64,000 bases of DNA, from positions 2,016,001 through 2,080,000 of the forward strand of contig CBDCRP010000003.1 of NCBI GenBank assembly GCA_965221165.1. The letters are read 5' to 3'. Shown here piece by piece: positions 576-21,747 of this stretch (its first letter is position 1; the number at the start of each line of letters is the position of its first letter). The notes under the pieces were generated by a model. That model saw nothing but the letters and a program-made list of their open reading frames with translations. It did no database searches and had not been told where the DNA came from. Origin of the DNA: a bacterium. GTDB taxonomy: Bacteria; UBA8248. Made by a program: the position numbers and the translations under genes.

Positions 576-584
576 AACCACTCC

Positions 585-2480: not shown

Positions 2481-2532
2481 TTTGAAAATTCAGGACCACG
2501 AAAGCGATAATACTCTAAAGGAATGAACGCAT

Positions 2533-3204: not shown

Positions 3205-3221
3205 GTAGTTTCCTCAAAGTA

Positions 3222-4121: not shown

Positions 4122-4253
4122 GTGAGCACCTCCTCTCGCTCGAAATTAGAAATAAACAATATGTATTCAGTCTAGCAGAAATGAAGCTCTTCAGAGAAAA
4201 GGAGTTGGCATTTGATGTATTTGGCTTCAGATATGACTAGCTTTCTGAAAAAA

Positions 4254-5440: not shown

Positions 5441-6207
5441 ACCCTAACGCCTGCATCCAAGATTTCACAAATCCTCTCCTTGTTCTCCAGGGTAGCGAAA
5501 AGAAAATCCGGAGAAGCGTTCGCTAACTCGTAAAGAGAATCACCGCCAGTAGCCACAGCCATCGTCTTCGCCCCACATGCGCGACCCGCCGATACATCGC
5601 GCCATGTATCGCCTATCACCCAACGAGCAATAGATTTACGTGGGAATTCCTTTTGAATGATTTTCTCACCTCGCTGAAATCCTGCTTCCAGCAACGCCGC
5701 CCTATCTCCGGAGTCGGACCCAAAACCGCCGAAAGAGAAAAATTGGTTCAGCCCACCACGCGAGAGTTTGATTCGCGCGCCTTTCTCGATATTTCCCGTC
5801 CCTAACCCCATGAATACATCTTTTCGATTCTCCAGATACGAAAGCAAATCGGGGATTCCCGGCATAAGATGAAAGTTTTTAGAATCCATAACAGTCACAG
5901 GCAGAATTTCCACATATTTCCTCAAAAGAATCTTTACCTCAGACTCTCTCCCGCAACGTCCAAGATGAGAATGAAACATCTCCTGTACGATGAGCTCATC
6001 CGTCTTTCCGTGCGGCTGAACATGGCGCATCGCGTTCGGTACTCCATGTATGCGCTCAAAAGCGACATTCAACGCTCTTGCCCCTGCTCCTCCGCTTAAA
6101 AGTAGCGTTCCATCGACATCGAAGAGGATCAAATGAATAGAATTCAATCGCTTTTTTCCCAATGCACATTCGTGAACATATTCAGAACGCGAGACGCTTT
6201 CCTCCAT
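5437..6207 (-). CDS. HAD-superfamily hydrolase (phosphoglycolate phosphatase-like)
   Basis: LFDVDGTL, GKTD, TGN, GGFGSD, VIGDTWRD. Start uncertain; the ORF-track start at 6483 overlaps the divergent SDR. Confidence 0.85.
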   Translation of the reverse strand: MEESVSRSEYVHECALGKKRLNSIHLILFDVDGTLLLSGGAGARALNVAFERIHGVPNAMRHVQPHGKTDELIVQEMFHSHLGRCGRESEVKILLRKYVEILPVTVMDSKNFHLMPGIPDLLSYLENRKDVFMGLGTGNIEKGARIKLSRGGLNQFFSFGGFGSDSGDRAALLEAGFQRGEKIIQKEFPRKSIARWVIGDTWRDVSAGRACGAKTMAVATGGDSLYELANASPDFLFATLENKERICEILDAGVRV

Positions 6208-6309
6208 GATATAACATGTGGATAAATTGATTCCATAATCATTTCCCGGGTGAATCACGTGAGATCGGGGAAAATTTTGCAGTGAACCATAAAACAAAGG
6301 AGATGAAAG

Positions 6310-7014
6310 GTGCTTGGTCAAAAAATTGCCGTTGTAACGGGCGGTAACAAAGGTATCGGTTTTGGAATTTGCCGAGCGCTTGCAAAACAGGGAGTCCAAA
6401 CCATCCTGACGGCGCGGGATATTTCCAGAGGTGAAATCGCTAAAGAGCAACTGCAAAAAGAGGCGCTGGAAATCATATCCCACCCCCTGGACGTTACCGA
6501 CCGACGCAGCATCGATTCTCTAGCCAGGTTTTTGACGAAAGAATTCGGCCAACTAGATATTTTAATCAACAACGCAGCCATCAGAAAAGACGCAGGAATG
6601 ATGGGGATGGACGTTCCCATCGAGATCGTCCGCGAAATGATGGAAACCAACCTCTACGGCCCCCTCATGATGTGCCAAGCCCTGGCTCCTCTTCTAAAGA
6701 AAAGTTCAGCCGGCAGAATCGTGAACGTCTCAAGTGGCATGGGCTCTCTCGCCAACATGGGAGGAGGCTCTCCCGCTTATCGAATCACCAAAACTGCGCT
6801 GAATGCGATGACGAAACTCCTCGCGAATGAATTCCGAGGAACCGGAGTGCTGGTGAATTGTTGCCATCCCGGATGGGTGAGAACCGACATGGGCGGCCGG
6901 GGTGCCTCAAAATCAATTGACGAAGGAGCAGACACGCCTGTATGGCTCGCTTTATTGCCGAAAGATGGGCCTACCGGAGGCTATTTCCAGGACAGAAAAC
7001 CCATGCCGTGGTAA
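6310..7014 (+). CDS. SDR family oxidoreductase (carbonyl reductase-like)
   Basis: TGGNKGIG, LINNA, YRITK, CHPGWVRTDMGG. Confidence 0.9.
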   Translation: MLGQKIAVVTGGNKGIGFGICRALAKQGVQTILTARDISRGEIAKEQLQKEALEIISHPLDVTDRRSIDSLARFLTKEFGQLDILINNAAIRKDAGMMGMDVPIEIVREMMETNLYGPLMMCQALAPLLKKSSAGRIVNVSSGMGSLANMGGGSPAYRITKTALNAMTKLLANEFRGTGVLVNCCHPGWVRTDMGGRGASKSIDEGADTPVWLALLPKDGPTGGYFQDRKPMPW

Positions 7015-7154
7015 CCAACGTGCCCATTTTCATATGGATGTGGATGTTCTTGTGGAGGGGGTAGTGAACGAGTCTATCGACAAAAATGAGTGTGGCGACT
7101 GCTTCCGTATAAAATTACTGATGGTAGGGTATGCGCATCGCCTGTTTCTGTAAA

Positions 7155-7730
7155 CTAATCAGATATTTTCGCATAATCCCATCCTGTAGTAAACGATTTC
7201 ACCTCACCAGTTGATTCCTCATACTTAAAACGGGGTATCTTGGCGAGATTACCACCATATACATGGATACCCACCACGGGCTCGGACGAAGCGCAACTAA
7301 CGCGGTGCACGTCATTATCCTGCGTGCAGCAGACAAAGACATCACCGGGCCCGGCCAAGCGTTTCCCTTGGGGGGTGAGCTTTGCGCAGGCGCCACTCTC
7401 ACGAGGGCCTTCACGCAAAAAACTCTCTTCGTTCTCCATTCCGCGGTAAATGCCTATCACCCCCCAGGTACCGTGATCGTGAATCGGAGTGGTCTGGCCC
7501 ACATCCCATATACCGACGCCCATGGAAAAACTCTCGTCCGGTTCGATGTGAATCTGATTGAGCGTAAAGCCTTCTTTTTTCACCAACAGTTGCTCGGCGC
7601 TCAACAAGTTCGGATCATCCAAAATCGGTTCAAGGCTCACCGCCACCCGGGCGGTTATTTCCTCTTCGGTGCCACCTGTTTTTACAATTTCGCGCACACG
7701 ATCGATAAAATCATTCATCCGTTTTGACAT
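7155..7730 (-). CDS. cysteine/thiol dioxygenase family cupin
   Basis: TPIHDHGTWG, DVHRV, IHVYG. Confidence 0.8.
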   Translation of the reverse strand: MSKRMNDFIDRVREIVKTGGTEEEITARVAVSLEPILDDPNLLSAEQLLVKKEGFTLNQIHIEPDESFSMGVGIWDVGQTTPIHDHGTWGVIGIYRGMENEESFLREGPRESGACAKLTPQGKRLAGPGDVFVCCTQDNDVHRVSCASSEPVVGIHVYGGNLAKIPRFKYEESTGEVKSFTTGWDYAKISD

Positions 7731-7780
7731 TTTTTCCTCCCGCGCTATTCCTTAGACGACGCTAGACGCCATCACATCAC

Positions 7781-8341
7781 CTAATTTTTATGATTCATCT
7801 CATGGGCTAAGAGCGCCGCCTTCAGCGACACGCTGCTGGCGAATCCGCCGAGCTCGCCCGAGCCCGCGATGACCCGATGTCAGGGTATTACAAGAGGAAC
7901 GGGATTTCTATGCAGCGCCTGGCCGACGGCGCGTGAGGCTTTCGAGTTTCCGATCTGCCTCGCCACCCAGCCGTAGGAGCGCGTCTCCCCATAAGGAATT
8001 TTTTCCGTCTGCCTGAGCACCTTTTCCATAAAAGGCGTAAGAGAAGAAAGGTCCGTTTTCAGCCTAAAACTTTTTCGGGCACCTTCCAGATATTCTTTTA
8101 TCTCCTTTGAAGTTTGCAGACTCAACGGCGTTGATTGCTCACTCGCATGATCAGCCACGAGGGGTTTTTCCACGCCATTCAACATTCTTATTTCCGCAAT
8201 CCCCTTATCGGAAACAAAAACAGAGAATTCCGCACGCACTTTCTTCAGCCAATATGCAACATGGGTTTCTAGCGATTCCCCAGCTTCATGGAACAATTCG
8301 TCTTGCCGCCACTCATTCAGCCAGCGCTTCATCTTGAACAC
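7781..8341 (-). CDS. ogt: methylated-DNA--protein-cysteine methyltransferase, selenocysteine form (TGA 7880-7882)
   Basis: IPYGETRSYG...ASRAVGQALHRNPVPLVIP-TGA-HRVIAGSGELGGFASSVSLKAALLAHE to TAG at 7781. TGA occupies the C of the PCHRV active site. Confidence 0.85.
7849..7866 (-). promoter_or_regulatory. putative bacterial SECIS hairpin of ogt
   Basis: CGGGCUC-GGGC-GAGCUCG, 7-bp stem starting 13 nt after UGA, loop begins with G. Confidence 0.6.
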
Positions 8342-8355
8342 CCCTTCTCATGACG

Positions 8356-9552
8356 CTAAAAAGCGGTGGCTAAGCCTTTCACGTAGGCTTGCGCCGTTCT
8401 TAACCGCAAAATCTGATTCGTGCCGTCGGAGTGCAAAAACGTGCTGGCATCGCGAAGATATTTCTCCATGGGAATGTCGTGCATAATGCCCGCGCCGCCA
8501 AATATCTCCATGCCCAGGCGTGCGCAGTCAAAGGCGACCTCCGATGCAAAAACCTTGCACTTCCACCCTTGCGTAAAATCATAGGGTTTTTGATGATCCA
8601 CAGCCCAGGCGGTGCGCCATATGTATGTGCGCGCAATGTCCAAATTCATCGCCATATCAGCCAACATGGTTTCTATCGCCTGATGCTGGGCGATGGGCTT
8701 GCCCCCTTGAACACGTTTTCGGCTGTAATCGAGCGCTTTCTCGAATGCGGCGCGCCCGACACCCAGAACTGTTGCGGCTGCTTCTGGTTTACCCATCGCC
8801 AGGAGGTTGCCCCTGATTTCAAACATGCTTCCTTCGCCCAGGATAACGTGGTTCTCGGGAATCTCGACATTTTCGTAAAAGATTTCCGAATTCATCGAAA
8901 GGCGTTGACCTATTTTTTCATGCACATGGCCAATCGATACGCCAGGAGTGTCTCTCGGAACCAGAAAACCGGTTAAACTCTCTCTTAAATTTTTACTGAG
9001 GTCGATCCTGGCCGCTAAAATGTACAACGACGCCACAGGGCCGTTGCTGATGTAGCGTTTTTGCCCATTGATGATCCACTTGCCGTTTTTTTTCTCCGCA
9101 CGCGCGTAAAGCGCGATGGAGGGATCGTCATAATATCCTTGGTGATCGGTTCCCGCTCCTTCTTCCGTCATGGAAATCGCAACCAGGAATCTTGGTTCCT
9201 CACACAAGCGTTTTATCCAGGGGTCTCTGAGTTCAGGCTCTACTTTTTCCAGTATATGGGACAGCTTCCAGGTCTGATCCAGATTTACCGCAAAACCCAT
9301 ATCGCCCACGGAAAGTTCTTCTCCCGCCAGACAACACGAAAGGACATCGGCGTCCATGCCGCCATATTCTTTGGGATAAGGCAGTTGCCTGAGGCCCAAA
9401 GCGCTTGCCTTTTCCGTCAAGTCCCACGGCATCCGTTCTTCCCAGTTCTGAATCCGATCACGCTCGGGAGCCACCGGGGCCAGTTCTTCATAGGAAAATT
9501 TTCTGGCTATTTGCTGAATTCGCAACTGCTCTGCATTTAACGTGAATTCCAT
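8356..9552 (-). CDS. acyl-CoA dehydrogenase
   Basis: MTEEGAGTD, INGQKRYISNG, RVQGGKPI, EIFGGAG, DGTNQI. Confidence 0.9.
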   Translation of the reverse strand: MEFTLNAEQLRIQQIARKFSYEELAPVAPERDRIQNWEERMPWDLTEKASALGLRQLPYPKEYGGMDADVLSCCLAGEELSVGDMGFAVNLDQTWKLSHILEKVEPELRDPWIKRLCEEPRFLVAISMTEEGAGTDHQGYYDDPSIALYARAEKKNGKWIINGQKRYISNGPVASLYILAARIDLSKNLRESLTGFLVPRDTPGVSIGHVHEKIGQRLSMNSEIFYENVEIPENHVILGEGSMFEIRGNLLAMGKPEAAATVLGVGRAAFEKALDYSRKRVQGGKPIAQHQAIETMLADMAMNLDIARTYIWRTAWAVDHQKPYDFTQGWKCKVFASEVAFDCARLGMEIFGGAGIMHDIPMEKYLRDASTFLHSDGTNQILRLRTAQAYVKGLATAF

Positions 9553-9628
9553 CTATACCCCTCCCGCTAATCATTCCCCGAAAGCGAGGCAACGATTCGG
9601 CTACCTTCAAGGAAAAACAAAAAGCGCA

Positions 9629-10012
9629 TCATGAAGAATAAAACAATACGCGATTGGCTGCATCCATCTCGATAACGCCAGGCGGTCTGCCAACACCTTC
9701 GACGAAAGCGGCATCCGTTCTCGCCATTTGGAGTTGAAGAACAGCCTCGTTCAAATCCGCGTTTGCAGATAAGGATATTCCTCGCCTTGCAGGCATTCCC
9801 CTCTCGGCAACCTCTCCCACTCTTTGAAAAACCTCGGGCACACGGATAAACTCATCAATGTCTTTTTTATTCAAGATGCCCACTAGGCGTTTATCATCAA
9901 AAATCGCAGCCCAGGGTGCGTTTATCCTGTTCATGGCCACCCACGCCTCTCTGGCGTCTTCCTCCACTCCAACAATCGCTACTGCCTGTAAAAAACACTC
10001 CCGAACTTTCAT
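9629..10012 (-). CDS. CBS-domain protein
   Basis: MKVRECF start, RLVGIL motif, CBS-pair size. Confidence 0.55.
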   Translation of the reverse strand: MKVRECFLQAVAIVGVEEDAREAWVAMNRINAPWAAIFDDKRLVGILNKKDIDEFIRVPEVFQRVGEVAERGMPARRGISLSANADLNEAVLQLQMARTDAAFVEGVGRPPGVIEMDAANRVLFYSS

Positions 10013-10722
10013 CGTTCGAGTCTCTCGGCTACCGATAAATGCCCAAAACGCGGCATCATCTCCACTTTCAAGAATCTTGATTTCATCGCTTTTAGTCTTT
10101 CCAGCGGATTTTGGGCAATTTCGCCGGCCAGAGCGCCAGCTTCCGCCATCAAGTCTTCCCTGGATGTGACACGATTCAACAATCCTAAGTGATATCCCTC
10201 TTGCGCATCAAACCTTCTGCCAGTGAGCACCAAGTCTTTTGCGGATGGAACAAAAATCTGCCGCGTCAGGCGAACGGTAGCATCTGCCCCCGGAAATACC
10301 CCCAATGCAGTCTCCGGATACCCCAAAACAGCATCATCCACGGCAATACGAATGTCACATGAGAGCATCAATACCATTCCCCATCCAAAAGCTGGGCCGT
10401 TTACCGCTGCAATCGTCGGGATAGGCAACTCACGAAGGATTACGCTCCACCTCTCGCCCAACATCATGAAACGCTTTGCTTGTTCTTTGGTATGAGTGGC
10501 GCTTTCCTTCAGATCGCGTCCTGCCGAAAAAGAACTTCCTGCGCCCGTCACAATAAGGACTTTAATGTCCCGTCTGCCCTTAATTCCAGCCATCTCCCTG
10601 CACATGGCCTCCATTAGCGGCGTGTTGAACGCATTACGCGTTTCCGGGCGATTCACTGTGATGCTCGCGACATTCGAGTCAGTATGTGTGATGAGGAGGT
10701 CTTTGTTCATTTTCCGCCTCAA
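10009..10722 (-). CDS. enoyl-CoA hydratase/isomerase family protein
   Basis: NRPETRNA, FSAGRDL, AVNGPAFGWG, PETALG. Confidence 0.9.
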   Translation of the reverse strand: MRRKMNKDLLITHTDSNVASITVNRPETRNAFNTPLMEAMCREMAGIKGRRDIKVLIVTGAGSSFSAGRDLKESATHTKEQAKRFMMLGERWSVILRELPIPTIAAVNGPAFGWGMVLMLSCDIRIAVDDAVLGYPETALGVFPGADATVRLTRQIFVPSAKDLVLTGRRFDAQEGYHLGLLNRVTSREDLMAEAGALAGEIAQNPLERLKAMKSRFLKVEMMPRFGHLSVAERLER

Positions 10723-10727
10723 TAAGC

Positions 10728-10755
10728 AAAAAGCCCATCCTCAGGGGGGCAGGCT
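10728..10755 (-). terminator. putative intrinsic terminator between the two enoyl-CoA hydratase genes
   Basis: Minus strand AGCCUGCCC...GGAUGGGCU imperfect stem followed by a U run. Confidence 0.45.
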
Positions 10756-10785
10756 CGGTATTTCAGGCAAAATTTTTGACGACTT

Positions 10786-11568
10786 TTATTCTCCTGTAAA
10801 ATTGGGCTTCCTCTTCTCTTTGAAAGCCGCCAGCGCTTCAGCGAAATCCTTGGTGTGATTCAACGGCAACCTGAGGGCGTTGGAAAACTCGACAGCCTGA
10901 GAGAGCGGCATATCGAGTGTTTGGTCGATTACTTTCTTCGCGCCACGGACCCCCAAGGGGCCATTATCCCTTATTTTTTCCGCCACGGACATCGCTTCAT
11001 TCATGAGCCCATTCAGGGGATGCGCTTTGTTCACCAAGCCGATGCGCTCGGCTTCTTTTCCATCGATTCTCTTGCTCGTGAAAACCAGCTCTTTCGCCTG
11101 ACCGGCCGGCATGATTCTTTGTAGCCTGACCACTCCACCGGCTCCCGGGAAAATACCCAGGCTGCATTCCGGCAAACAAAGAGTGGCTTCTTCCGCAGCC
11201 AACCTGATGTCGCACCCCAAGGTAATCTCCACGCCCCAGCCGAACGCGTGGCCATTGATGACGGCTATAGTAGGCATGGGCAAGAGTTCCCATAGTGTAG
11301 TCGTCGCCATCACATGGCGCTGGTATTGGTCAGCCATCTCCTTGGTATGCGTAGCGCTTTCTTTGAGGTCACGTCCCGTACTGAAAGCGCGCCCCTCTCC
11401 AGTGAGGATAACCACGCGCACATTCCGCGCGGCGGCTAAGGTTCGCGCCAACTCCACGAATTCTTCCGCCATCTTGAAGCTGACCGCATTCAAACTCTCC
11501 GGGCGGTTGAGCTTCACTACGGCCAATCCATCCTCTTCCGTATAGAATATCGTTTCGAATTCGCGCAC
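10786..11568 (-). CDS. enoyl-CoA hydratase/isomerase family protein
   Basis: LNRPESLNA, FSTGRDL, FGWGVE, PECSLG, AFKEKRKPNFTGE. Confidence 0.9.
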   Translation of the reverse strand: MREFETIFYTEEDGLAVVKLNRPESLNAVSFKMAEEFVELARTLAAARNVRVVILTGEGRAFSTGRDLKESATHTKEMADQYQRHVMATTTLWELLPMPTIAVINGHAFGWGVEITLGCDIRLAAEEATLCLPECSLGIFPGAGGVVRLQRIMPAGQAKELVFTSKRIDGKEAERIGLVNKAHPLNGLMNEAMSVAEKIRDNGPLGVRGAKKVIDQTLDMPLSQAVEFSNALRLPLNHTKDFAEALAAFKEKRKPNFTGE

Positions 11569-11607
11569 CTACCCCTCCTGAAAAATACCTTTTCGTTTCG
11601 GCTCGGA

Positions 11608-12150
11608 TCAGCTTTTCAGATGGCTGGCAACTTCTTCGACAAACTTCAGCGTCGTTTCTCGCATTTCCTCGGGCTGTAAATTGCTGACCGGATGGGGCAA
11701 TTGGATATACGGGTGCCCCTCCATGCCCTTGCCTCGAAATTGAAAGTCCGCCGCGTTCTTGAACGCCTCGGTGATGATGGTGGTCGAAGGAACGCCTCGT
11801 TTTTCAAATTCAACCGTGTCGTGCACACTGCACAACGTGCAAGAGCCTCAGCCCCCTAATGCGGCTATCGCCACATCCACCTCCTGGGCCATTTCTTCAA
11901 TCATTTCATCCGTGGCGGGTTTCGAGTAATGCTCCTTGCGCAGCGAGACGACTCTGGCCACGTCAAATTGCTCACGAAGAGCATTTCCCAGAGTGTCCAA
12001 AATAATATCCGCTTGCTCTTTCGTGTTGTCGAGGAGTCCTACCACCTTGCCAGAAAGATCGCCGGGTCGTTGCGCCAGCTCAATTTTCGCGGCTGAGCCA
12101 CCCGCCGTCGGGTCGATAAATCCCATTCCGTTCGCCATGGCTTTCTCCAT
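11608..12150 (-). CDS. UGSC-family selenoprotein (TGA 11848-11850), 180 aa
   Basis: Two ORF-track fragments are in frame across TGA: GLLDNTK...AIAALGG-U-GSCTLCSVHDTVEFEKRGVP; UGSC motif. Confidence 0.88.
11818..11836 (-). promoter_or_regulatory. putative bacterial SECIS hairpin of the UGSC gene
   Basis: GUUGUGCA-GUG-UGCACGAC, 8-bp stem 11 nt after UGA, loop starts with GU. Confidence 0.65.
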
Positions 12151-12345
12151 ATGATATGTGAATTCAACCGTATCTAAATCATATCTCGCTAATCTTTCCT
12201 TGTCTACGATATCCGACCATTCGATTTCTCTTGTCGATTCTCTCTTGAAAATACGAATGATATTTTATCCGCTTCTCAGATTCGCCGAATTTTGGCAAAA
12301 TCAAGTCCAATTCACGAAAATCCTCTTTTCTTAAGGAGTAAACAA

Positions 12346-14607
12346 ATGGCCGATTACGATATCATCGGCAAGTCAAATGTTCGATACGACGCTATTCCGA
12401 AAGCGGATGGCTCTATGCCCTATGGAGAAGACGCGATACCCGCAGGCGCATTGCAGTGCGGCGTATTGTTTACGCCCATCCCCGTAGGCCGCTTGAAAAA
12501 ACTTGACACTTCAAAAGCCGAAAAAATTCCGGGCGTAGCCGCTATTTTGACCGCAAAGGATATTCCGGGCATAAACGCGCGATTCGGCTCCGGCACGACG
12601 GGCCTGCCCCATCAGCCAGTGTTGGTGGAAGATAAAATTGAATTTACCGGAGACGCTCTCGCCATCGTAGGCGCTGAAACCAGAGAAGCGCTTGATGCTG
12701 CGATAGCAGCCATCGAAGTGGAAATCGAAGCGGAAGAGGGCGTGTGGACAACGCGTCACGATGAAACGAGCGCCGAGAAACGACAGGCGTGTGATTTCGA
12801 GGTAACCCGAGGAGATACAAAAACCGCGTTTGACGAAGCCGATGTGGTGATTGAGAAAACATACACCACGCAACTCGCCGAACACGCATTTCTGGAACCC
12901 GCCTCCGGCACTTCCTGGATGGAAGAAGACGGCGTCATCACAATCCGTGTCGGCACTCAGCTTATTGAATACTATCGCGCCATAGCGGCGATCTTGGGAA
13001 TCTCGCAGAGCCGTGTCCGACACCTCGGAACTTACGTCGGCGGCGGTTTCGGCGCCAAAGGCATGCTGACCGTAGAACCTTACCTGGCACTGCTCACTTG
13101 GCATACGCAAAGGCCCGCCGTAATGGTGCTGGGTCGCGAGCACGGCATCAGAAACACCTCGAAAAAACATCCTTTCTATATGAAATACAAAACAGGAGCG
13201 ACCAAGGACGGGAAAATTTTGGCCGTACAAGCGGATATCGTGGGCGACGCAGGCGCCTATCCGTATAAATCCAATTTGTTCCTCCTGGGCGCGATGTGCA
13301 TCGCCGCAGGCCCTTACGATGTGCCCAACGCAAAAATTCGTGCGCACGGCTATCTCACCAACAATCCTATCACCAACGCGATGCGTGGCGTTGGCTCGAA
13401 CCAGGTCTGCTTCGCATATGAGACCCAAATGAATCTGGTTGCAGACTCCATCGGGATGGACAAATACGAATTCAGGAGGAAAAATTTCATCCAGAAAGGC
13501 CAGGAACTGCCCACCGGGCAAAAAATTCCTTATGAACCGAACCTGGAAGGATGCCTCGACAGCGCGCTTCAGGCCTTGGGCGAACCCACAGAACCAGGCC
13601 CGGGAAAACGTATTGGCCGGGCGGCAGCAGCGAACATCACCGGCTACGGAAGGCCAAATGACGATGCGAATGCGGCGGTTCACCTTGAGCCGGATGGCAG
13701 CGCCGTGGTTCGCGTGAGCGCACCAGATATTGGAGCAGGGCAGGGCGCTACGCTTCAAAGCATCACGGCTGAAACCCTGGGACTCAGGCTCGATCAGGTT
13801 TCCACCCGTCTATCCGATTCCGCTACTACGCCGCTCTCGGGCATCACTGCCGGGTCCCGCCAAACTCTCATGGCTGGGCACGCCGTTCAACTTGCCGCAG
13901 ACGAGGTTAGGAAAACCGTGACTAAAGGCGCCGCTTCATTGCTCGAGGCTGCTGAAGAGGACATTCGCGTGGGTGGCGGCGAGGCGTGGGTGTCCTCCGC
14001 TCCCGAGAGGAGAGTTGGCATCGGTGCTGCGGCTGGCGAAGCCAAAAAAATGGGTGAAGCACTACATTGCACCCATGGCTACAACATGCCGGGACATGAA
14101 TATGAGAATCCTAAGCGATACATGAACGGCATGGGCGGATGGTCGGACTACACCTTTGGCGTTCACGCAAGCGAAGTGGAAGTCGACATCGAAACCGGTG
14201 AAGTGAATCTCTTGAAGCATGTCGCCAGCCATGATGTCGGGCGAGCGCTGAACCCTCAAAGCGTGGAAGGGCAATTTGAAGGGGGCGCGGTAATGGGGAT
14301 TGGCTACGCTCTACACGAGGAAATCACCATGGTGGAAGGAGACTGCCGATCGCAAAGCTTTCACGAATATCTAATCCCCACTTCCTCGGATATCGGCGAG
14401 TTTGAGTCTGTCGTTCTTGAGTGTGGGGAAGGCGCGGGTCCGTATGGCGCACGCGGCGTTGGGGAGCCACCATGCAATAACGCGCCAGCCGCAGTCGCCC
14501 TCGCCATAAACGATGCGATAGGCACGGAAGTCTACGACCTGCCCATTACACCCGAGCGCGTCTGCTGGGCTGTAATGAAGAAAAACGGCAAAAGCAACGG
14601 CCATTAA
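12346..14607 (+). CDS. xanthine dehydrogenase family molybdopterin-binding subunit
   Basis: EHAFLEP, GGGFGAK, AMRGVG, DIGAGQG, AGSR, EGQFEGG, GVGEPP; ATG at 12346 follows AAGGAG. Confidence 0.92.
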   Translation: MADYDIIGKSNVRYDAIPKADGSMPYGEDAIPAGALQCGVLFTPIPVGRLKKLDTSKAEKIPGVAAILTAKDIPGINARFGSGTTGLPHQPVLVEDKIEFTGDALAIVGAETREALDAAIAAIEVEIEAEEGVWTTRHDETSAEKRQACDFEVTRGDTKTAFDEADVVIEKTYTTQLAEHAFLEPASGTSWMEEDGVITIRVGTQLIEYYRAIAAILGISQSRVRHLGTYVGGGFGAKGMLTVEPYLALLTWHTQRPAVMVLGREHGIRNTSKKHPFYMKYKTGATKDGKILAVQADIVGDAGAYPYKSNLFLLGAMCIAAGPYDVPNAKIRAHGYLTNNPITNAMRGVGSNQVCFAYETQMNLVADSIGMDKYEFRRKNFIQKGQELPTGQKIPYEPNLEGCLDSALQALGEPTEPGPGKRIGRAAAANITGYGRPNDDANAAVHLEPDGSAVVRVSAPDIGAGQGATLQSITAETLGLRLDQVSTRLSDSATTPLSGITAGSRQTLMAGHAVQLAADEVRKTVTKGAASLLEAAEEDIRVGGGEAWVSSAPERRVGIGAAAGEAKKMGEALHCTHGYNMPGHEYENPKRYMNGMGGWSDYTFGVHASEVEVDIETGEVNLLKHVASHDVGRALNPQSVEGQFEGGAVMGIGYALHEEITMVEGDCRSQSFHEYLIPTSSDIGEFESVVLECGEGAGPYGARGVGEPPCNNAPAAVALAINDAIGTEVYDLPITPERVCWAVMKKNGKSNGH

Positions 14608-14622
14608 CTGGTAATCAACTAC

Positions 14623-14655
14623 AAAAAAGCCCCGGCAAGCTGCCGGGGCTTTTTT
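14623..14655. terminator. bidirectional intrinsic terminator
   Basis: AAAAAAGCCCCGGCA-AGC-TGCCGGGGCTTTTTT between convergent genes. Confidence 0.85.
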
Positions 14656-14743
14656 CTTCAGAAAAACACTAAACCATTCCTAGCTTCACAAAGGCTTATA
14701 CGAACAAGTGGAACATGAGATTTTGTCACGCCATCAAGCTATT

Positions 14744-15763
14744 TCACACACTAAATTTTTTTATCACGGCCCGGCACGCCACGGTAATTCCGTGCATGAC
14801 CATGCTGGAGGGCGACCCCCTGCTTCCTGCGACGATCAAATGAAGATCCTCGGGATCACCTACCGCAGGCACAAAAAAATCATCATCATTCACATCCACG
14901 GGAAACGGCCAACGATCCGCGCCTTTCTCGCCTCGCCATATGCCGCCACGTTTTATGTCCCCGATTTTGCGGCCTCCCATTTCCATCAATTTTTGATGAA
15001 CATCGGAGCGGCTGAGCCCGGCGTCAGAGCAAAGGTGCGCATGTTGCGCGCCCAGGACAACCGCCATGTCCGCTTGTCGATACATATTGGGGCCGCCTAA
15101 AGCGGACATCATGTCAGCAACTGTCGTAAGAAGCCGATCCGGAGTCAGGCTCGCATCGTCCCATACCTGCACGGGCCCTTCGAGGGGAATCATGGTTACC
15201 GCATTATCATTTTTTAAAAACCCTTTCGATTCCGCATATGACTCCCAGGGCGATTCCTCCTCGTTCTCCAAGATGCAAAAAGTGTTTCGCCAGGGACCTC
15301 CAAAACCGCCTAGACAGGTAACCCCGGGAATTCCGCCACCCACGTTCATCATGATGAGCCTCACGGCGCGGCCGATGGTCAGATTTGCGCGAAAGCCGGG
15401 ACCCATACAGCCTACCCCTCCGTGCAATCCGATTTCCTTGGCGTAGGGACCATTGACCAGCAAAAAAGGAGCGCCCGCGCTCGTCGTGGCCTGAATCAGG
15501 TTTACGTTAAACTGCTCATCGAGAAGCGCTTCCAGTCCTGCTATCAGTACCGGCATGTATTCAGGCTTACAGCCCGCCATCACGGCATGGGCCGCAACGC
15601 TTTGGATGCTGAGTTCGCCCCCTGCCGGAGCTACGTCGCCTATAACTTCACCCGGCTCTCTTTTGGTTCCTGAGAGCATCATATCGATTCTCTCTTCCGT
15701 CGGCGTCACTACAGGCAAGCCGTCCGACCATTCTTTTTCAAAGAAAAACTCGAATTCGTCCAT
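14744..15763 (-). CDS. uncharacterized UGSC-associated 'WSDGLP' family protein, paralog 4
   Basis: WSDGLPVVTPTEER, AVMAGCKPEY, VNGP, PGFRANLTIGRA, ENEEESPW. Confidence 0.8.
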   Translation of the reverse strand: MDEFEFFFEKEWSDGLPVVTPTEERIDMMLSGTKREPGEVIGDVAPAGGELSIQSVAAHAVMAGCKPEYMPVLIAGLEALLDEQFNVNLIQATTSAGAPFLLVNGPYAKEIGLHGGVGCMGPGFRANLTIGRAVRLIMMNVGGGIPGVTCLGGFGGPWRNTFCILENEEESPWESYAESKGFLKNDNAVTMIPLEGPVQVWDDASLTPDRLLTTVADMMSALGGPNMYRQADMAVVLGAQHAHLCSDAGLSRSDVHQKLMEMGGRKIGDIKRGGIWRGEKGADRWPFPVDVNDDDFFVPAVGDPEDLHLIVAGSRGSPSSMVMHGITVACRAVIKKFSV

Positions 15764-15797
15764 ACGCTCATCCTCAAAAGTAACCCGACTCAAATGC

Positions 15798-16814
15798 TTA
15801 TAGTTGATAATCAGTCGAGACCGCCTCACTGCCATCCACCCAACCTGGCATGACGGCCGTCACCGGTCCGGGCGTACCCCCTGCGACGACAACAATCAGA
15901 TCGTCTTTATCCTTAATCGCCGGAACCATAAACGAATCATCTTGCGGATCGATATCAAATGGCCACTTCTTTATCATCTCCTCGCGCCAATAGCCCGATT
16001 TTCTCAGCTCTCCAAGGGGTCTGCGCGCAAGTTCCATTAGTCGTCGATGGACATCTTCTTTACCAAGCCCCGCTTGCGCGCACATGCGTGCATGATCCGG
16101 ACCAAAAGCGACAACCACCTGAGTCTTTAGCCAGATGTTCAGCGAACCAAGGGTGGATATTTTATCCGCTAAACCCACGAAAAATGATTCCGGCTCTTTT
16201 GAATAATCATCGATATACCCTTGAGGCGCTTCTGTCATCACGGCGGTTACAACATCGTCATTTTGATGAAATCCTCTCGTGACGGAAAATGGCTCCCAAG
16301 GGCTTTCTGCTTCATTCTCGGCGATACAAAACGTATATCTGGCAGGTGAACCGAAGGTGCTCATAGAGGCGAAAACCGGTACACCGCCGCCCAGGTTCAT
16401 GAGAATGAGCCTGATGGCGCGACCAATCGTCGCGTTCGCCCGAAAACCCGGCCCAAAGCATCCTGTACCGCCATGAAGACCGATTTTATTCGCATAAGGT
16501 CCGTTCACAATAATCAAAGGGGCTGCGCTATGCATGGTGCCCTGCACGCCGTTCAAGTTTAGTTCTGGGGTTAAGAGCGCCCGGAGGCCAGCTATAACGA
16601 CGGGTAAATACGAGGATTCACAGCCCGCCATTACGGCGTGCGCGGCAACCGCTTCGACGCTGGCCTCCCCCATGAGGGGCGGCACCAAGCCAATGACTTC
16701 CGAAGCCTCAATTCTTGCGCCCGAGAACATAGCGGCCATTCGTTTTTCGGTAGGGGGGATTACCGGAAGACCATCCGACCAGGATTTTTGAAAGAAAAAC
16801 TCGAATTCATCCAT
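15798..16814 (-). CDS. uncharacterized UGSC-associated 'WSDGLP' family protein, paralog 3
   Basis: Same motif series (WSDGLP, AVMAGC, GPGFRANATIGRA, AENEAESPW). Confidence 0.8.
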   Translation of the reverse strand: MDEFEFFFQKSWSDGLPVIPPTEKRMAAMFSGARIEASEVIGLVPPLMGEASVEAVAAHAVMAGCESSYLPVVIAGLRALLTPELNLNGVQGTMHSAAPLIIVNGPYANKIGLHGGTGCFGPGFRANATIGRAIRLILMNLGGGVPVFASMSTFGSPARYTFCIAENEAESPWEPFSVTRGFHQNDDVVTAVMTEAPQGYIDDYSKEPESFFVGLADKISTLGSLNIWLKTQVVVAFGPDHARMCAQAGLGKEDVHRRLMELARRPLGELRKSGYWREEMIKKWPFDIDPQDDSFMVPAIKDKDDLIVVVAGGTPGPVTAVMPGWVDGSEAVSTDYQL

Positions 16815-16855
16815 TGGGATACGACACCGCTTTCTCTGTCATGGAGACTCCGGCG

Positions 16856-17890
16856 CTATACTTCATAGGCCCCATGAACGGCGCGGCTGCCGCCACTCCA
16901 GCCATGACAAACCGCGCTGCCGGAACCCCAGCCGCCCGCGACGATCAAATGGAGGTCGCGGGGGTCTTTGATGACGGGGACAAAAAACTCATCATCATCG
17001 GGATCCACATGAATATACATATCCAGCGCGCGCCTGCGTCGCCAGTTGCCGCCGCGCTTCAGATCTTTCACCTTATGTCCGGCCAACTCGCACAGGCGCT
17101 GGTGCACGTCCGCACGGGTAAGGCCGCCACCAGAGCAAATTTTCGCATGCTGGGGATTCATGGCGACGACCATGTCGGTCCTGGGCGCGTGCATGTTCCA
17201 GGAACCCAGGCCCGTCATCGCATCTGCGATTCCTCGGAGCAGGCGCTCGGGCTCCTCACTGACATCATCGAAAGTCAGGCGCGGGCTTTCCACCATGGCC
17301 ATGGTGATCACATTTTCATCCGCCCCGTATCCCCTGGATACAGCGAGCGTCTCCCAGGGGTGAAACTCCAGGTTCTCCGTGATGCACGCGGTATAGCGCA
17401 GCGGCGTGCCGAAAATCGTCATCGAAGAAACACCCGGGATGCCGCCACCCAGATTCATTAAAACCAGGCGAATGGCTCGGCCAATGGAAGCGTTGGCCCT
17501 AAAACCGGGACCAAAACAGCCATTTCCTCCGTGAATGCCGATATTCTCGGAATAAGGGCCATTCACGATCATGAGAGGCGCCACACCATGCATCGTGCCC
17601 TGCACGCCGTTCATGTTGAACTCATCGCGAAGCATGAGGGAGGTAGCGCCGAGAACGACCGGCAAGTACTCGGGTTTGCAGCCGGCCATCACCGCATGAA
17701 CTGCCACGCTATGGACCGTGGCCTCGCCCATGGCGGGAGGAACGTGGCCGATGAACTCATCCGGATTTCTCTTCGTGCCGGAAAGCATGCGCTCTATGCG
17801 CTCTTGCGACGGAGTGACGACGGGCAAACCGTCCGACCATGGTTTTTCCAGGAAAAACTCGAATTCATCTAGAGGATCGTTCAAAACCAC
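16856..17890 (-). CDS. uncharacterized UGSC-associated 'WSDGLP' family protein, paralog 2
   Basis: Same motif series. Confidence 0.8.
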   Translation of the reverse strand: MVLNDPLDEFEFFLEKPWSDGLPVVTPSQERIERMLSGTKRNPDEFIGHVPPAMGEATVHSVAVHAVMAGCKPEYLPVVLGATSLMLRDEFNMNGVQGTMHGVAPLMIVNGPYSENIGIHGGNGCFGPGFRANASIGRAIRLVLMNLGGGIPGVSSMTIFGTPLRYTACITENLEFHPWETLAVSRGYGADENVITMAMVESPRLTFDDVSEEPERLLRGIADAMTGLGSWNMHAPRTDMVVAMNPQHAKICSGGGLTRADVHQRLCELAGHKVKDLKRGGNWRRRRALDMYIHVDPDDDEFFVPVIKDPRDLHLIVAGGWGSGSAVCHGWSGGSRAVHGAYEV

Positions 17891-17916
17891 TCACCCCCTG
17901 AAATATACGAGTATCA

Positions 17917-18948
17917 TCAGGATTCAAATGAACGGGATACACAGCGGCTGCTTCCATTCCAGCCGTGCATCACGGCCGTCATCGGCCCCGGAATTCCTCC
18001 CGCCACGATCAAGACCAGTCGTTGGGCTTCCTTGATCGTCGGAACGAACGCATCGTCATCATCCAGGTCGACGGAAATTGGAAAATCATTAATCCGATTT
18101 TCCCTGTAATGGCCTCCCGTCTTGAGTTCACCCACCGTGCGGCCCGCGATTTCACAAAGTCGTCCATGGACATCCGCCTTGGAATACCCCCGCTTTGCGC
18201 AAACCGCCGCCTGTTGCGGGCTCATCGCCACCACCAAATCGGTGCTGGCCCAACAATTCCAGGCGCCCAAATGCGACATGGTGTCCGCAATGGAGGGGAA
18301 CATGCGCTCAGGGTCGTTACTCACGTCATCCCAGACCATGACGGGGCCTTCCACGTGCACGGCGGTAACGACGTCCTCGTCCGCGCCAAAACCCTTCGTC
18401 ACGGCAAAAGAATCCCAGGGGCTTTCTTCTTCGTTCTCGGCGATGCAGAACGTGAACCTCCCCGGTTGGGAGAAGGTGCTCATCGAGGTGATGCCCGGTA
18501 TTCCGCCGCCGATGTTGAGAAGCAAAAGTCTGATGGCGCGGCCAATCGTCGCGTTTGCTCTGTTTCCGGGGCCAAAACAACCAAGTCCGCCATGTAAGCC
18601 GATTTCCCTGGCGTAAGGGCCGTTCACGATTAAAAGAGGGGCCGCGCAGGAGAGCGTCGCCTGCACACCGCCCACATTGAATTTTTCCTCTAAAATAGCC
18701 TCCACGGCCCCGATGAGAACGGGCATATACTCCGGTTTGCATCCGGCCATGACGGCATGAACGGCGATGGTCCGAACATCCGCCTGGGCCAGCAGCGGGG
18801 GTACGTCCCCGATGACTTCTTCCGGAGTGCGGCTCGTGCCCGCCAGCATGAGCCCTAGGCGCTCTTCCGTCGGGGGGATGACCGGCAGGCCGTCCGACCA
18901 GGGTTTCTCAAAGAAATAATCGAACTCATCCACAGGAAGAGCGCTCAT
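17917..18948 (-). CDS. uncharacterized UGSC-associated 'WSDGLP' family protein, paralog 1
   Basis: Same motif series; ATG at 18948 follows a GGAGG RBS. Confidence 0.8.
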   Translation of the reverse strand: MSALPVDEFDYFFEKPWSDGLPVIPPTEERLGLMLAGTSRTPEEVIGDVPPLLAQADVRTIAVHAVMAGCKPEYMPVLIGAVEAILEEKFNVGGVQATLSCAAPLLIVNGPYAREIGLHGGLGCFGPGNRANATIGRAIRLLLLNIGGGIPGITSMSTFSQPGRFTFCIAENEEESPWDSFAVTKGFGADEDVVTAVHVEGPVMVWDDVSNDPERMFPSIADTMSHLGAWNCWASTDLVVAMSPQQAAVCAKRGYSKADVHGRLCEIAGRTVGELKTGGHYRENRINDFPISVDLDDDDAFVPTIKEAQRLVLIVAGGIPGPMTAVMHGWNGSSRCVSRSFES

Positions 18949-19119
18949 GAAATGCCTCCGGAGAAACGCTAAGATGCGCAGGATACGCTTGCCATCGAAA
19001 ATGTTGAACAAATATACATGGGCGCTGGACAGATTGCGAATCCATGCCGTTAGAATGGGCCTTACATCCAGTTTTCCGATCACGATGGAATCACCACGTC
19101 ACCCACAGGAGCCCATTTC

Positions 19120-19506
19120 ATGCCGATATACAGAAATCTCGCCGGACAGGACCAGGGAAAAGCCGCCGACTACGTTACCGCAAACGCCGCCTGGGTCGAT
19201 GGCGCCCACACCACCATCGGTTTTTTCCGGATGGAGGCGAACGGCCATTCCAACCCGCACTATCACCATGACGAGCAATTCCTCTATCTCTTAAGGGGCA
19301 GTCTCCGCATCGCCGTGGAAGGAGAAGTCCTGGAGGCCGCACCCGGTGATCTGGTGCAGTTCCCGCCCGGAGAAGTGCATGAGATCATGGCGCTCGATGA
19401 GCCCGTGGAGCTCCTGCTCACGAGAAGCCCGGCGCGCCCGAGTCTCGACGTGCTCGCCGTGACGCCAGAAGGCGACAAGGCGAGGAGCGTGCTGCGCGCG
19501 GGCTAG
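19120..19506 (+). CDS. cupin domain protein
   Basis: PHYHHDEQFLYLLRG...PGDLVQFPPGEVH; AGGAG RBS. Confidence 0.85.
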   Translation: MPIYRNLAGQDQGKAADYVTANAAWVDGAHTTIGFFRMEANGHSNPHYHHDEQFLYLLRGSLRIAVEGEVLEAAPGDLVQFPPGEVHEIMALDEPVELLLTRSPARPSLDVLAVTPEGDKARSVLRAG

Positions 19507-19749
19507 CCCCCCATAGCGCTCCCAAAGGGGAATTTGCGCATAACCTTATATATTTCAACAAGTTAAATTTTCACTTATTTTCAGATATTTTCGCCTTTTT
19601 TTACTATTTTTTCCCTTTCTTCAGATATTCCGGGTGGCCCCGACCGATAAGGGAGGGGCTGCCGACTGAGGAAGGAGGGTCGATTCCGCCCGAGGAGGAA
19701 GGAATTGACGACCGATGAGGGGCAAGTGGCGACCACCCTTTAAGGTCAC

Positions 19750-20075
19750 CCCACCCCGAGGAGGGGTTCCGTCCCCTACGGAACGCCTCCCGTATTGGTC
19801 GGGTTTGACGCCACCATGCCGGGGTTGCAGATCACTCCCGGCCGATGAAGGTCCTCGTAGGGACAACCCCCCGTGGTTGTCCTATGTCAGGGAAGGGATG
19901 GCCCCAGGACAGGCACGGGGGCCTGTGGGGCGGCCCCGAGGAGGGAAGCTGCATAGGGGCGGTTCGCGAAACTGTGGGGCAGTCCCGATGAGTGACTGCC
20001 CCTGCTACTGGGGAAACATCGACAGGGTGGACACACACGAGCTTCCCCTTTTCGGGAAAGCCCGACGCCCCTACG
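19750..20075. repeat. cluster of GTAG-type REP-like palindromes
   Basis: GTAGGGACAACCCCCCGTGGTTGTCC (19857-19882) plus several degenerate GTAGGG/CCCCTAC units. Confidence 0.65.
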
Positions 20076-20128: not shown

Positions 20129-20617
20129 TTATTCGTTCACGCGCCAGACGTCTTTCATCGCGCACCCGCTGGCCTTGTACAAATTGTACACCGGGCACCT
20201 GCGGAAATACTCGGCCTTGAGCGCCTCCACCTGCTCTTCGCTCGCCTCGATCTCAAGCCAGATTTCGCTATGCGCCTCGCTCGGGTTCGATTGGTAGCCC
20301 TCCTGGCCCGCAATGCCCCTCGGACTGTAGACGATGGTGGATTTCACCTTGAGTGAGCCTATCTCGAGTTTCGCGTCTTTCGCGCATCTCTCGAGAATCA
20401 CCGCGGTGCAGCCCGCCAGCGAGGTCACGAGATAGTCCATGGGCGAGGGCCCCTCGCCCGAGCCGCCCAGGTGCTTGGGCTCATCCATCACCAGGGTGTA
20501 TCCGCGCATGAGGGTCACGATGCTCTTCGCATGACCCTTGAAGTCCGCTTCCGCCCAGTTCTCCGTGGTTTCGGGTAATTCTTTCGGCCGAATCGCCATT
20601 TTTATGCTGCCTCCCAT
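20129..20617 (-). CDS. OsmC family protein
   Basis: MDEPKHLGG.GEGPSP, SLAGC, RRCPV; start may be ATG at 20599. Confidence 0.85.
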   Translation of the reverse strand: MGGSIKMAIRPKELPETTENWAEADFKGHAKSIVTLMRGYTLVMDEPKHLGGSGEGPSPMDYLVTSLAGCTAVILERCAKDAKLEIGSLKVKSTIVYSPRGIAGQEGYQSNPSEAHSEIWLEIEASEEQVEALKAEYFRRCPVYNLYKASGCAMKDVWRVNE

Positions 20618-21288: not shown

Positions 21289-21747
21289 CTAAAGCGCTTT
21301 CAGCACGGCTTTCGTATGTCCATTCACCTTGACGTCCTTGAAAACCTTCTCGATGACGCCTTTTTCGTCGATGATGTAGGTGGTGCGGAAAATTCCGATG
21401 AACTTCCTGCCGAACAGGGTCTTTTCGCCATAGGCCCCGTACTTCGACGAGATGAGGCCGTCGGGGTCCGCCAGCAGGGTGAAATCCAGCTCCAGTTTTT
21501 GTGAAAACTTCTTGTGGCTGACCTCGTTGTCGGGGCTTACGCCGATGACGGTCGCGTTTTTCTTCTGTATTTTCACCAGCTCTTTGTTGAAGTCCTCCGC
21601 TTCCACCGTGCACCCGGGCGTATTGTCCTTCGGGTAGAAGTAAAGCACGACCCTCTGGCCCTTGTATCTCGACAGCCGGTGGACCTTGCCGTTCTCGTCC
21701 CTCAAGGCGAATGCGGGGGCTCTAGCTCCTTCTTTCAGTGCCGCCAT
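21289..21747 (-). CDS. bcp: thioredoxin-dependent thiol peroxidase BCP
   Basis: LYFYPKDNTPGCTVEA, GVSPD, RTTYIID. Confidence 0.92.
   Translation of the reverse strand: MAALKEGARAPAFALRDENGKVHRLSRYKGQRVVLYFYPKDNTPGCTVEAEDFNKELVKIQKKNATVIGVSPDNEVSHKKFSQKLELDFTLLADPDGLISSKYGAYGEKTLFGRKFIGIFRTTYIIDEKGVIEKVFKDVKVNGHTKAVLKAL

Follow-up and report, generated by a model that had tools for sequence, protein, structure and literature searches.

Within a 64,000-nucleotide stretch of bacterial DNA (contig CBDCRP010000003.1 of assembly GCA_965221165.1, positions 2,016,001 to 2,080,000; hereafter the window, meaning the whole stretch), a gene for a selenoprotein of the UGSC family lies near four tandem paralogous genes on the same strand. 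The paralogs belong to a family of about 340 amino acids, which we call WSD after its WSDGLP motif. Here we show that UGSC and WSD proteins are encoded together, are often fused into one chain, and are predicted to dock onto each other. The elements of the window on which this analysis turns are the following.

11608-12150 (-), stop codon included: UGSC family selenoprotein, 180 aa, with Sec101-Gly-Ser-Cys104 (Sec, selenocysteine; PF24696, 5.4e-51; NF041046, 4.3e-44).
11848-11850 (-): in-frame TGA, probably read as Sec; Cys stands in the same column in natural Cys forms.
11818-11836 (-): hairpin of 8 bp with a GUG loop, resembling a selenocysteine insertion sequence (SECIS), starting 12 nt after the UGA; supported by conservation and covariation.
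14744-15763 (-): WSD paralog 1, 339 aa from the ATG at MDEFEFFF; open reading frame (ORF) open to 15835.
15798-16814 (-): WSD paralog 2, 338 aa, with the motifs shared by all four paralogs.
16856-17890 (-): WSD paralog 3, 344 aa, modelled with AlphaFold2 (AF2); carries the family-conserved Cys71, Asn133, Arg138, Cys169 and Glu172.
17917-18948 (-): WSD paralog 4, 343 aa from the ATG at MSALPV; ORF open to 19083.

Can the in-frame TGA of the UGSC gene be taken for a selenocysteine codon? The frame holds a single TGA, readthrough of which gives a product of 180 aa (...ALGG-U-GSCTLCSVHDTVEFEKRGVPS). With 173.6 bits against Pfam PF24696 (cut-off 25) this product is a full-length family member, and it scores 150.1 bits against NCBIfam NF041046 (cut-off 125). 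Homologues carry cysteine in the Sec column, with CGSC in a Natrialba locus (L005), in locus L074 and in many fusion proteins; among the 76 UGSC matches of related loci, the column holds TGA in 69 and Cys in 2. The Sec/Cys-x-x-Cys motif is kept in all 47 aligned stand-alone UGSC proteins, rows that were picked for carrying it. As for the hairpin downstream of the UGA, 89% of its cells are paired across 68 distinct UGSC genes, as opposed to 14-56% after shifting the 3' partner by 1-3 nt, and 45 of the 68 genes retain at least 7 of the 8 pairs. Pair 21:27 covaries (CG in 39 sequences, GC in 28), a switch in which a codon alternating between Cys and Trp is coupled to synonymous codons for Val. 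Folding energy is no better than that of shuffled sequences (z = 0.28 for the window; median z = -0.59, with 23 of 70 below -1); because it is not distinctive, the case for the hairpin is one of conservation and covariation. Scans of the window for tRNAs and Rfam families returned nothing, with no tRNA-Sec or annotated SECIS within the 64 kb, and a sequence search of the PDB with the window UGSC gave no match. Together, the Cys homologues and the conserved, covarying hairpin support reading this TGA as Sec. Exactly one UGSC match exists across the window. An earlier note on this DNA had proposed a single UGSC selenoprotein on the strand of the paralogs, separated from them only by an inverted molybdenum-enzyme gene; the family models and the in-frame TGA agree with the former statement, and the one intervening gene indeed encodes a 771-aa subunit of the xanthine-dehydrogenase family.

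The WSD genes are co-oriented and follow each other in tandem with 26-41 nt between them. Their products are 50-56% identical overall (50-54% to paralog 1, 53-56% to paralog 3), and WSDGLP, P..(T/S), AVMAGC, NGP, GPG.RAN, IGRA and EN....PW are invariant in all four; every motif that the earlier note had listed is present in each of them. The strings it had quoted from two differing segments are likewise exact (LIQATTSAG, GVQGTMHSA, GVQGTMHGV and GVQATLSCA; TCLGGFGGP, SMSTFGSP, SMTIFGTP and SMSTFSQP). These segments correspond to alignment columns 100-108 and 154-162, in which pairwise identity is 0.43 and 0.35, against 0.6-0.87 in the flanks. The idea that the paralogs differ in two short segments stands only in part: there are variable islands in a conserved core, but the whole C-terminal half is about equally variable (0.33-0.63).

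How large is the WSD family, and does it resemble anything known? In a collection clustered at 90% identity, 6128 of 8000 candidates scored as relatives at E <= 0.001; at 50% identity there are 5754 clusters at E <= 0.001 and 1616 at 1e-30. Among the 120 matches listed, wherever the source gives a name it is 'hypothetical protein'. No match was found for the four paralogs in Pfam or NCBIfam at E <= 0.01, no Pfam family occurred in more than 1 of 72 diverse members at E <= 1, and a PDB sequence search gave nothing (best E = 1). From the ESM Atlas came only unnamed clusters of the family itself and one cluster with UGSC in 16% of its members. The core motifs WxDGLP..PT, AVMAGC, NGP, GPG.RAN, IGRA and C.AENE..PW occur in all four paralogs, and across the 72 members their columns show either no variation or conservation of 90% or more. 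In paralog 3 numbering, conservation of at least 90% is seen for Cys71, Pro73, Asn133, Cys169, Glu172, the WxDGLP..PT motif and Pro178-Trp179. A 73-row alignment has Cys71 (of AVMAGC) in 72 rows, Cys169 in 69, and Asn133, Arg138 and Glu172 in 73 each. Gly70 is invariant, and Gly70-Cys71 is situated at a helix junction. The AF2 model of paralog 3 is confident (predicted local distance difference test, pLDDT, 94.6; predicted template-modelling score, pTM, 0.93). A Foldseek search of the PDB with this model gave 0 matches at E <= 0.001, the best being 7xky_A (E 2.6e-3; TM 0.27/0.31; root-mean-square deviation, rmsd, 16 A). Likeness to class I (Fe-S) fumarate hydratase or to the Toblerone-fold cyanuric acid hydrolase was considered and rejected as too poor (TM <= 0.31, rmsd 12-18 A). 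As modelled, the WSD fold is without a convincing match in the PDB.

Do the two families occur together outside the window? We sampled one genome per species, obtained 584 WSD relatives, and kept the best 80 loci, which were searched with a hidden Markov model built from the window UGSC and 13 fusion N-termini. UGSC was found in 68 of the 80 loci, with 76 matches; 75 of these lie on the strand of the nearest WSD gene and 70 within 250 bp of it, in both gene orders. The reverse search used the Cys-form UGSC of Natrinema as query against 72,556 plasmid records, comprising plasmids and chromids of cultured isolates. Sixteen records had a UGSC match, each with a WSD match within about 330 bp, and 24 records had a WSD match, 16 of them with UGSC. 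RefSeq names the members of such plasmid pairs 'UGSC family (seleno)protein' and then 'hypothetical protein'. In Natrinema zhouii, the UGSC and WSD genes overlap by 4 nt.

Two loci of the sample have unusual features. In a betaproteobacterial metagenome-assembled genome (MAG; L008, 3627-13242), a 10-kb segment contains three genes for UGSC and four stretches of WSD, which alternate as W-U-W-U; a frameshift seems to have divided a single WSD gene into the stretches 9974-10327 and 10311-10997, and one of the UGSC proteins is 60% identical to that of the window. On a contig binned as the archaeon Candidatus Nitrosocosmicus (L036, 9417-10990), a UGA-form UGSC accompanies WSD. The nearest relative is from a Dormiibacterota MAG (support 99 in the Shimodaira-Hasegawa-like approximate likelihood ratio test, SH-aLRT), and its placement may reflect a binning error or gene transfer.

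Fusions were sought among the 150 best WSD representatives by scanning the 47 that have extra length. UGSC is present in 29 of these, in both domain orders. Fourteen of 18 proteins of 510-570 aa contain a complete N-terminal UGSC domain, and 12 of 15 proteins of 410-470 aa start at UGSC profile positions ~98-125, lacking the UGSC start because the gene caller began after the UGA. The opposite order, a C-terminal UGSC that covers profile positions 2/3-92 and is cut at the UGA, was seen in 3 of the next 6 proteins scanned (454-542 aa), each of 460-461 aa. The other modules joined to WSD are AhpC/TSA-Redoxin (2/47), FeThRed_B (1/47) and Pyr_redox_2 of the thioredoxin-reductase type (1/47). No Pfam domain was found in 14/47, six of which are proteins of ~710 aa with 2-3 WSD stretches. 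When the UGSC portion of a fusion was used as query in a word-index search, only 4 proteins were returned, all of ~550 aa, which is no real census of fusions. These long proteins, P0124, P0130, P0135, P0138, P0144 and P0157 (~710-740 aa), with 2-3 WSD stretches in one chain, are a fused counterpart of the tandem gene array of the window.

Docking was modelled on a proxy, the natural Cys-form fusion P0260 (549 aa) from another organism, split into its two domains, and not on the proteins of the window. As a whole chain, P0260 is modelled by AF2 as one body (pLDDT 93.9, pTM 0.92). The split domains gave a docking score of 0.62 (runs 0.60, 0.62 and 0.62), as compared to 0.02 for the best of three controls. 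Of 80 solved complexes, 58 reach the mark of 0.62, as do 2 out of 110 mismatched pairs, a calibration that is only rough, as an alignment of our own was used. The runs agree in at least 92% of contacts, with partner pLDDT of at least 85. On the UGSC side, the predicted interface comprises residues 11-24, an N-terminal strand with the family's invariant Pro, residues 107-108 (the Gly-Ser next after Cys/Sec), and residues 138 and 141. In the model, strand 11-24 rests on WSD Trp18 (of WxDGLP), the 'PPT' turn (26-29) and the helix ending in AVMAGC (53-68), so the N-terminal signature motif of WSD would be, at least in part, a docking site. On the WSD side, in paralog 3 equivalents, the interface includes W18, T26-Q29, M68, V96/T99/M100, L142, N146, L147 and S155/M157. 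V96, T99 and M100 fall in the first variable segment and S155 and M157 in the second, 12-14 residues before Cys169. Cys71 and the Sec/Cys are not themselves among the named contacts, and the output gives no residue pairings. The earlier note had envisaged Sec facing a pocket lined by the variable segments; the predicted interface of the split P0260 proxy includes residues of both segments and the two residues after Sec/Cys, which fits that arrangement.

The UGSC domain itself is modelled as a three-layer alpha/beta protein of flavodoxin/Rossmann-like type, with parallel beta-alpha units and the C/U-G-S-C motif at a helix N-terminus. For the UGSC part of the fusion model, Foldseek listed only generic alpha/beta proteins at E <= 0.001, azoreductases and a lumazine synthase being the best and GTPases also among them (TMt 0.13-0.57). 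A thioredoxin fold, suggested for UGSC in the available text of PMC2398784, finds no support, as the model differs and no thioredoxin is among the Foldseek matches listed.

Fusions occur in either domain order, the genes are adjacent almost everywhere across bacteria and archaea, and the predicted interface is confident; these findings bear out what the earlier note had supposed, namely that the UGSC and WSDGLP families belong together. The two families are associated in genomes, an interface between them is predicted, and no characterised relative that works alone was encountered; the reverse of any of these three would have spoken against the supposition.

Around the UGSC and WSD genes, the window contains the following further features.

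7781-8341 (-): homologue of methylated-DNA-protein-cysteine methyltransferase, with an in-frame TGA at the place of the active-site Cys (PLVIP-U-HRV).
8356-9552 (-): acyl-CoA dehydrogenase (ACAD).
9629-10012 (-): CBS-domain protein.
10009-10722 (-): second enoyl-CoA hydratase (ECH).
10786-11568 (-): ECH, directly downstream of UGSC.
12292-14607 (+): xanthine-dehydrogenase-family molybdopterin-binding large subunit, 771 aa, lying in inverted orientation between the UGSC gene and the WSD array; its scores stay under all NCBIfam equivalog cut-offs.
20129-20617 (-): OsmC-like protein; 71.8 bits against the 'OsmC-related (seleno)protein' model (cut-off 95); 77% identical in L001.
21289-21747 (-): AhpC/TSA peroxiredoxin, just past the WSD array.

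A related MAG, L001, displays the order OsmC-like, cupin, three WSD genes, inverted xanthine-dehydrogenase-family gene, UGSC, ECH, CBS, methyltransferase homologue, cupin. The xanthine-dehydrogenase-family proteins of the two sources are 79% identical, the UGSC proteins 74%, and the split layout as a whole is kept at 55-79% protein identity. The four window and three L001 paralogs form one clade (SH-aLRT 99), which stands beside a Nitrospinaceae sequence. Because L001 keeps the whole layout, the split arrangement of several paralogs with one UGSC gene is inherited and not an accident of assembly. The link to adjacent CoA-dependent genes, also raised in the earlier note, is real in this lineage, where UGSC and ECH are adjacent in both the window and L001; elsewhere it is only a tendency (8-9 of 81 sources).

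Several of these neighbours merit comment of their own. The methyltransferase homologue is probably a second selenoprotein gene in the same gene string as UGSC and has a 52% identical copy in L001; the methylated-DNA-protein-cysteine methyltransferase family is listed as a known selenoprotein in the available part of PMC13188914. No Fe-S or FAD subunit for the xanthine-dehydrogenase-family gene was seen among the ORFs scanned, and its cluster is present in 4 of 81 sources. G+C content is 0.48-0.59 in positions 1-20000, which include the UGSC/WSD block, and mostly 0.56-0.65 in 22000-64000, with a dip to 0.54 at 50-52 kb; the low-G+C first 20 kb may be an acquired island. Genes of a chromosomal origin region (parB, parA, mnmG, mnmE, yidC, dnaA, recF, gyrB and gyrA) occupy 28780-57412, which places the UGSC/WSD block on a bacterial chromosome near oriC. 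Promoter and terminator scans of the window yielded no more sites than shuffled sequences.

In which metabolic setting might the pair act? We clustered 963 neighbouring ORFs from 81 sources (80 loci plus the window). The commonest neighbours, counted in sources, are family III CoA-transferase (9), ACAD (9), ECH (8) and short-chain dehydrogenase/reductase (8), followed by zinc-dependent alcohol dehydrogenase (7), TctC (7), luciferase-like oxygenase (7) and PrpD (5); the counts for ACAD and ECH take in the window itself. These genes suggest catabolism of small organic acids or acyl-CoA. Vibrio europaeus pVEu (L083, 3037-7044) and Sporomusa termitida pSPTER (L086, 1878-7032) have a WSD ORF of 561-574 aa with an N-terminal extension, beside aconitase X and DUF126; the Vibrio extension gives a weak UGSC match of 24.9 bits.

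Reductases that depend on thioredoxin (Trx) and thioredoxin reductase (TrxR), such as methionine sulfoxide reductase and peroxiredoxin (Prx), combine a catalytic Cys or Sec with a resolving Cys and rely for their recycling on an NADPH flavoenzyme together with a CxxC protein. WSD and UGSC have no detectable sequence or fold relation to these enzymes, and what they share with them is linkage: WSD is fused to TrxR-like, Prx-like and ferredoxin-thioredoxin reductase (FTR)-like modules, and trxB is present in the operon of Variovorax sp. SRS16 and Roseovarius sp. THAF8, two of seven annotated plasmid regions viewed. On Variovorax plasmid 3 (L081, 3089-7569) and Roseovarius pTHAF8_b (L084, 5947-8758), trxB is co-oriented with WSD and UGSC, beside a LysR regulator. 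The Prx-, FTR-beta- and TrxR-like fusions, together with trxB in these two operons, make a thiol/selenol redox cycle the best-supported chemistry for UGSC/WSD.

The earlier note had also likened UGSC to component B of glycine and proline reductase (GrdB/PrdB). Against the GrdB model, the window UGSC reaches 18.2 bits (E = 9e-4; cut-off 602.2) over model positions 325-415 of 431, and a match to the same C-terminal region recurs in 3 of 14 fusions at 11-13 bits (E = 0.04-0.12). The weak alignments always fall on positions ~325-415 of the model, and no GrdB or PrdB structure is among the Foldseek matches listed. Membership in GrdB/PrdB (TIGR01917, TIGR01918) can be dismissed at 18.2 bits versus 602.2. 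What survives of the likeness is a weak but recurrent match over the same region, far below threshold and with a partner that does not resemble PrdA or GrdE; it is compatible with a distant kinship of UGSC to the Sec domain of GrdB/PrdB. In architecture, the Grd/Prd systems, as far as described in the accessible part of PMC11229817, consist of a small subunit with Sec-x-x-Cys in tight association with a larger one that binds the substrate, as would UGSC and WSD in our proposal, and their oxidised Sec is regenerated by a reductant system, as we propose here. In contrast, the large subunit WSD is unrelated to PrdA/GrdE (no Pfam or NCBIfam match), no gene for pyruvoyl maturation (PrdH-like), GrdA or GrdCD was seen nearby, and among the hosts are cultured isolates that do not belong to the amino-acid-fermenting clostridia (haloarchaea, Variovorax, Roseovarius and Paracoccus).

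In most genomes, UGSC and WSD stand in a 1:1 ratio, as an adjacent pair or one fused chain, whereas WSD is expanded to four tandem paralogs in the window and three in L001, beside a single UGSC gene. We therefore propose, with a probability of roughly 0.6, that the window encodes a lineage-specific, expanded form of a widespread and unnamed UGSC+WSD two-protein module. The mechanism that we infer for it is as follows. The N-terminal strand of UGSC would dock on the WxDGLP/PPT surface of WSD and bring Sec-x-x-Cys up to a pocket in WSD that the two paralog-variable loops line. WSD would bind the substrate and supply Cys71 (and Cys169), while Sec would act as nucleophile or reductant and end as a Se-S bond with Cys104, to be re-reduced by a system of the thioredoxin-reductase type. 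On this view, one Sec subunit would work with four alternative catalytic subunits, each with a substrate specificity of its own; that it serves all four is the natural reading of the layout. More tentatively, UGSC+WSD may constitute a previously undefined class of two-subunit, Sec-dependent oxidoreductases with a catalytic subunit of new fold, modular in this Nitrospinota-like lineage, in which one Sec subunit would serve 3-4 substrate-specific paralogs. We consider this broader claim possible, though somewhat less probable than its negation.

A number of observations weigh against the proposal. Twelve of the 80 loci have no UGSC match: three on short or edge contigs, four of Poribacteria with a shortened WSD (L024, L041, L048 and L059), L015 of Vicinamibacterales, in which WSD is fused to an AhpC/TSA-like domain, and L004, L027, L045 and L046. 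The C/U-G-S-C motif is partly or wholly lost in 5 of the 14 full fusions (P0133, P0149, P0154, P0185 and P0226; e.g. CGAS, SGVY, IGGS), which keep the equivalents of WSD Cys71 and Cys169, so UGSC is not an obligate redox partner everywhere. Only one source among the 81 has a TrxB-like ORF within 7 kb, and a conserved third gene is missing: even the most frequent neighbour clusters are limited to at most 9 of the 81. In the window itself, UGSC lies 2.6 kb from the paralogs behind an inverted gene, is not co-transcribed with the WSD genes, and heads its own ECH-ECH-CBS-ACAD string. Finally, the docking was made on a Cys-form fusion of another organism as a proxy.

Does UGSC take part in catalysis, or does it only deliver electrons? 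It might be a dedicated, thioredoxin-style carrier, with WSD Cys71 and Cys169 doing all the chemistry and UGSC re-reducing their disulfide, the Sec remaining outside the active site. The near-invariance of both cysteines would suit such a carrier, as would the five fusions that are without an intact redox motif and the alternative fusion of WSD to generic Prx-, FTR-beta- and TrxR-like modules, which suggests that any reductant serves. However, the predicted interface places the residues next to Sec/Cys against the WSD loops, a permanent, extensive interface with frequent fusion is unusual for a diffusible carrier, and the fact that 69 of 71 motifs have Sec rather than Cys suggests demanding chemistry; we find this account doubtful. 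Another reading drops redox chemistry altogether and casts WSD as a Cys-dependent isomerase, lyase or hydrolase, with UGSC in a structural or regulatory role. The same loss of motif in 5 of 14 full fusions is compatible with it, and so are the four Poribacteria loci, which have a shortened WSD and no UGSC match anywhere in the locus, and the weak fold echoes of class I fumarate hydratase and cyanuric acid hydrolase (TM <= 0.31). It is nevertheless unlikely, given the Sec/Cys-x-x-Cys of the 47 aligned stand-alone proteins (selected for that motif) and the recurrent fusion and operon linkage to TrxR-, Prx- and FTR-type modules.

Could the four paralogs of the window simply work without UGSC, leaving it to serve the ECH/ACAD genes of its own transcript? 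Separate transcription units, promoter-like sites upstream of both (in a number not above that of shuffles) and the UGSC-ECH adjacency kept in L001 point in that direction. Yet the sole UGSC match in 64 kb sits beside the WSD array, the split layout is preserved in L001 at the identities given above, and the two families are paired everywhere else, so that we give this possibility little credence, somewhat less even than the non-redox one. Very improbable, lastly, is a disguised Grd/Prd reductase, in which WSD would cleave itself at Gly70-Cys71 to yield a pyruvoyl group and UGSC, acting as PrdB, would help to cleave the C-N bond of an amino acid or betaine. The weak recurrent match of UGSC to the C-terminal region of the GrdB model, the invariant Gly70 and near-invariant Cys71 at a helix junction, and the precedent of Prd, whose pyruvoyl subunit binds the Sec subunit (PMC11229817, in the part available), lend it some colour, but WSD lacks sequence likeness to the PrdA/GrdE models, AF2 models the WSD chain as intact, and no PrdH-like or GrdA-like gene was seen nearby. 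The expanded two-protein module remains our preferred reading.

UGSC has been recorded since 2007-2008 among the major selenoprotein families of marine and freshwater microbes, its function being unknown (PMC1976440, PMC2398784). In the available text of the papers covered (PMC1976440, PMC2398784, PMC9312934, PMC13188914; subscription journals lay outside this coverage), it features only in lists of selenoproteins of unknown function, as a family abundant in ocean metagenomes. The window protein is a full member of the 'UGSC-containing protein' family of Zhang and Gladyshev, with U-G-S-C motif and SECIS-like hairpin, and shows no difference in the protein itself. Those authors devoted one sentence and a figure to an 'Unknown_1' domain fused to UGSC (Zhang and Gladyshev 2008, PMC2398784, Fig. 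S1A, as far as accessible). In the accessible part of supplementary file 1 of that paper, a read runs from ...GCGSCT... to ...GWTDGLPVVPPT..., the start of the WSD domain; since it passes from CGSC into WSD, 'Unknown_1' is very probably the WSD family, judging by this sequence match, and the fusion would thus have been seen already in 2008. In its available text, that report contains no family name, neighbourhood analysis, structure or partner role for 'Unknown_1', and tandem paralog arrays are unmentioned. The pairing of UGSC and WSD is real, general and largely undescribed.

With WSD, UGSC gains a near-obligate and testable partner, a very large family not represented in Pfam or NCBIfam. Cultured organisms, among them Natrinema, Halalkalicoccus jeotgali, Haloterrigena turkmenica, Variovorax sp. 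SRS16, Roseovarius sp. THAF8 and Paracoccus versutus, have natural Cys forms and fusions that can be expressed without Sec machinery. The trxB gene found in two operons indicates a likely electron donor, and with the tandem array of the window one can ask, in a natural setting, whether a single Sec subunit is able to serve several catalytic subunits.

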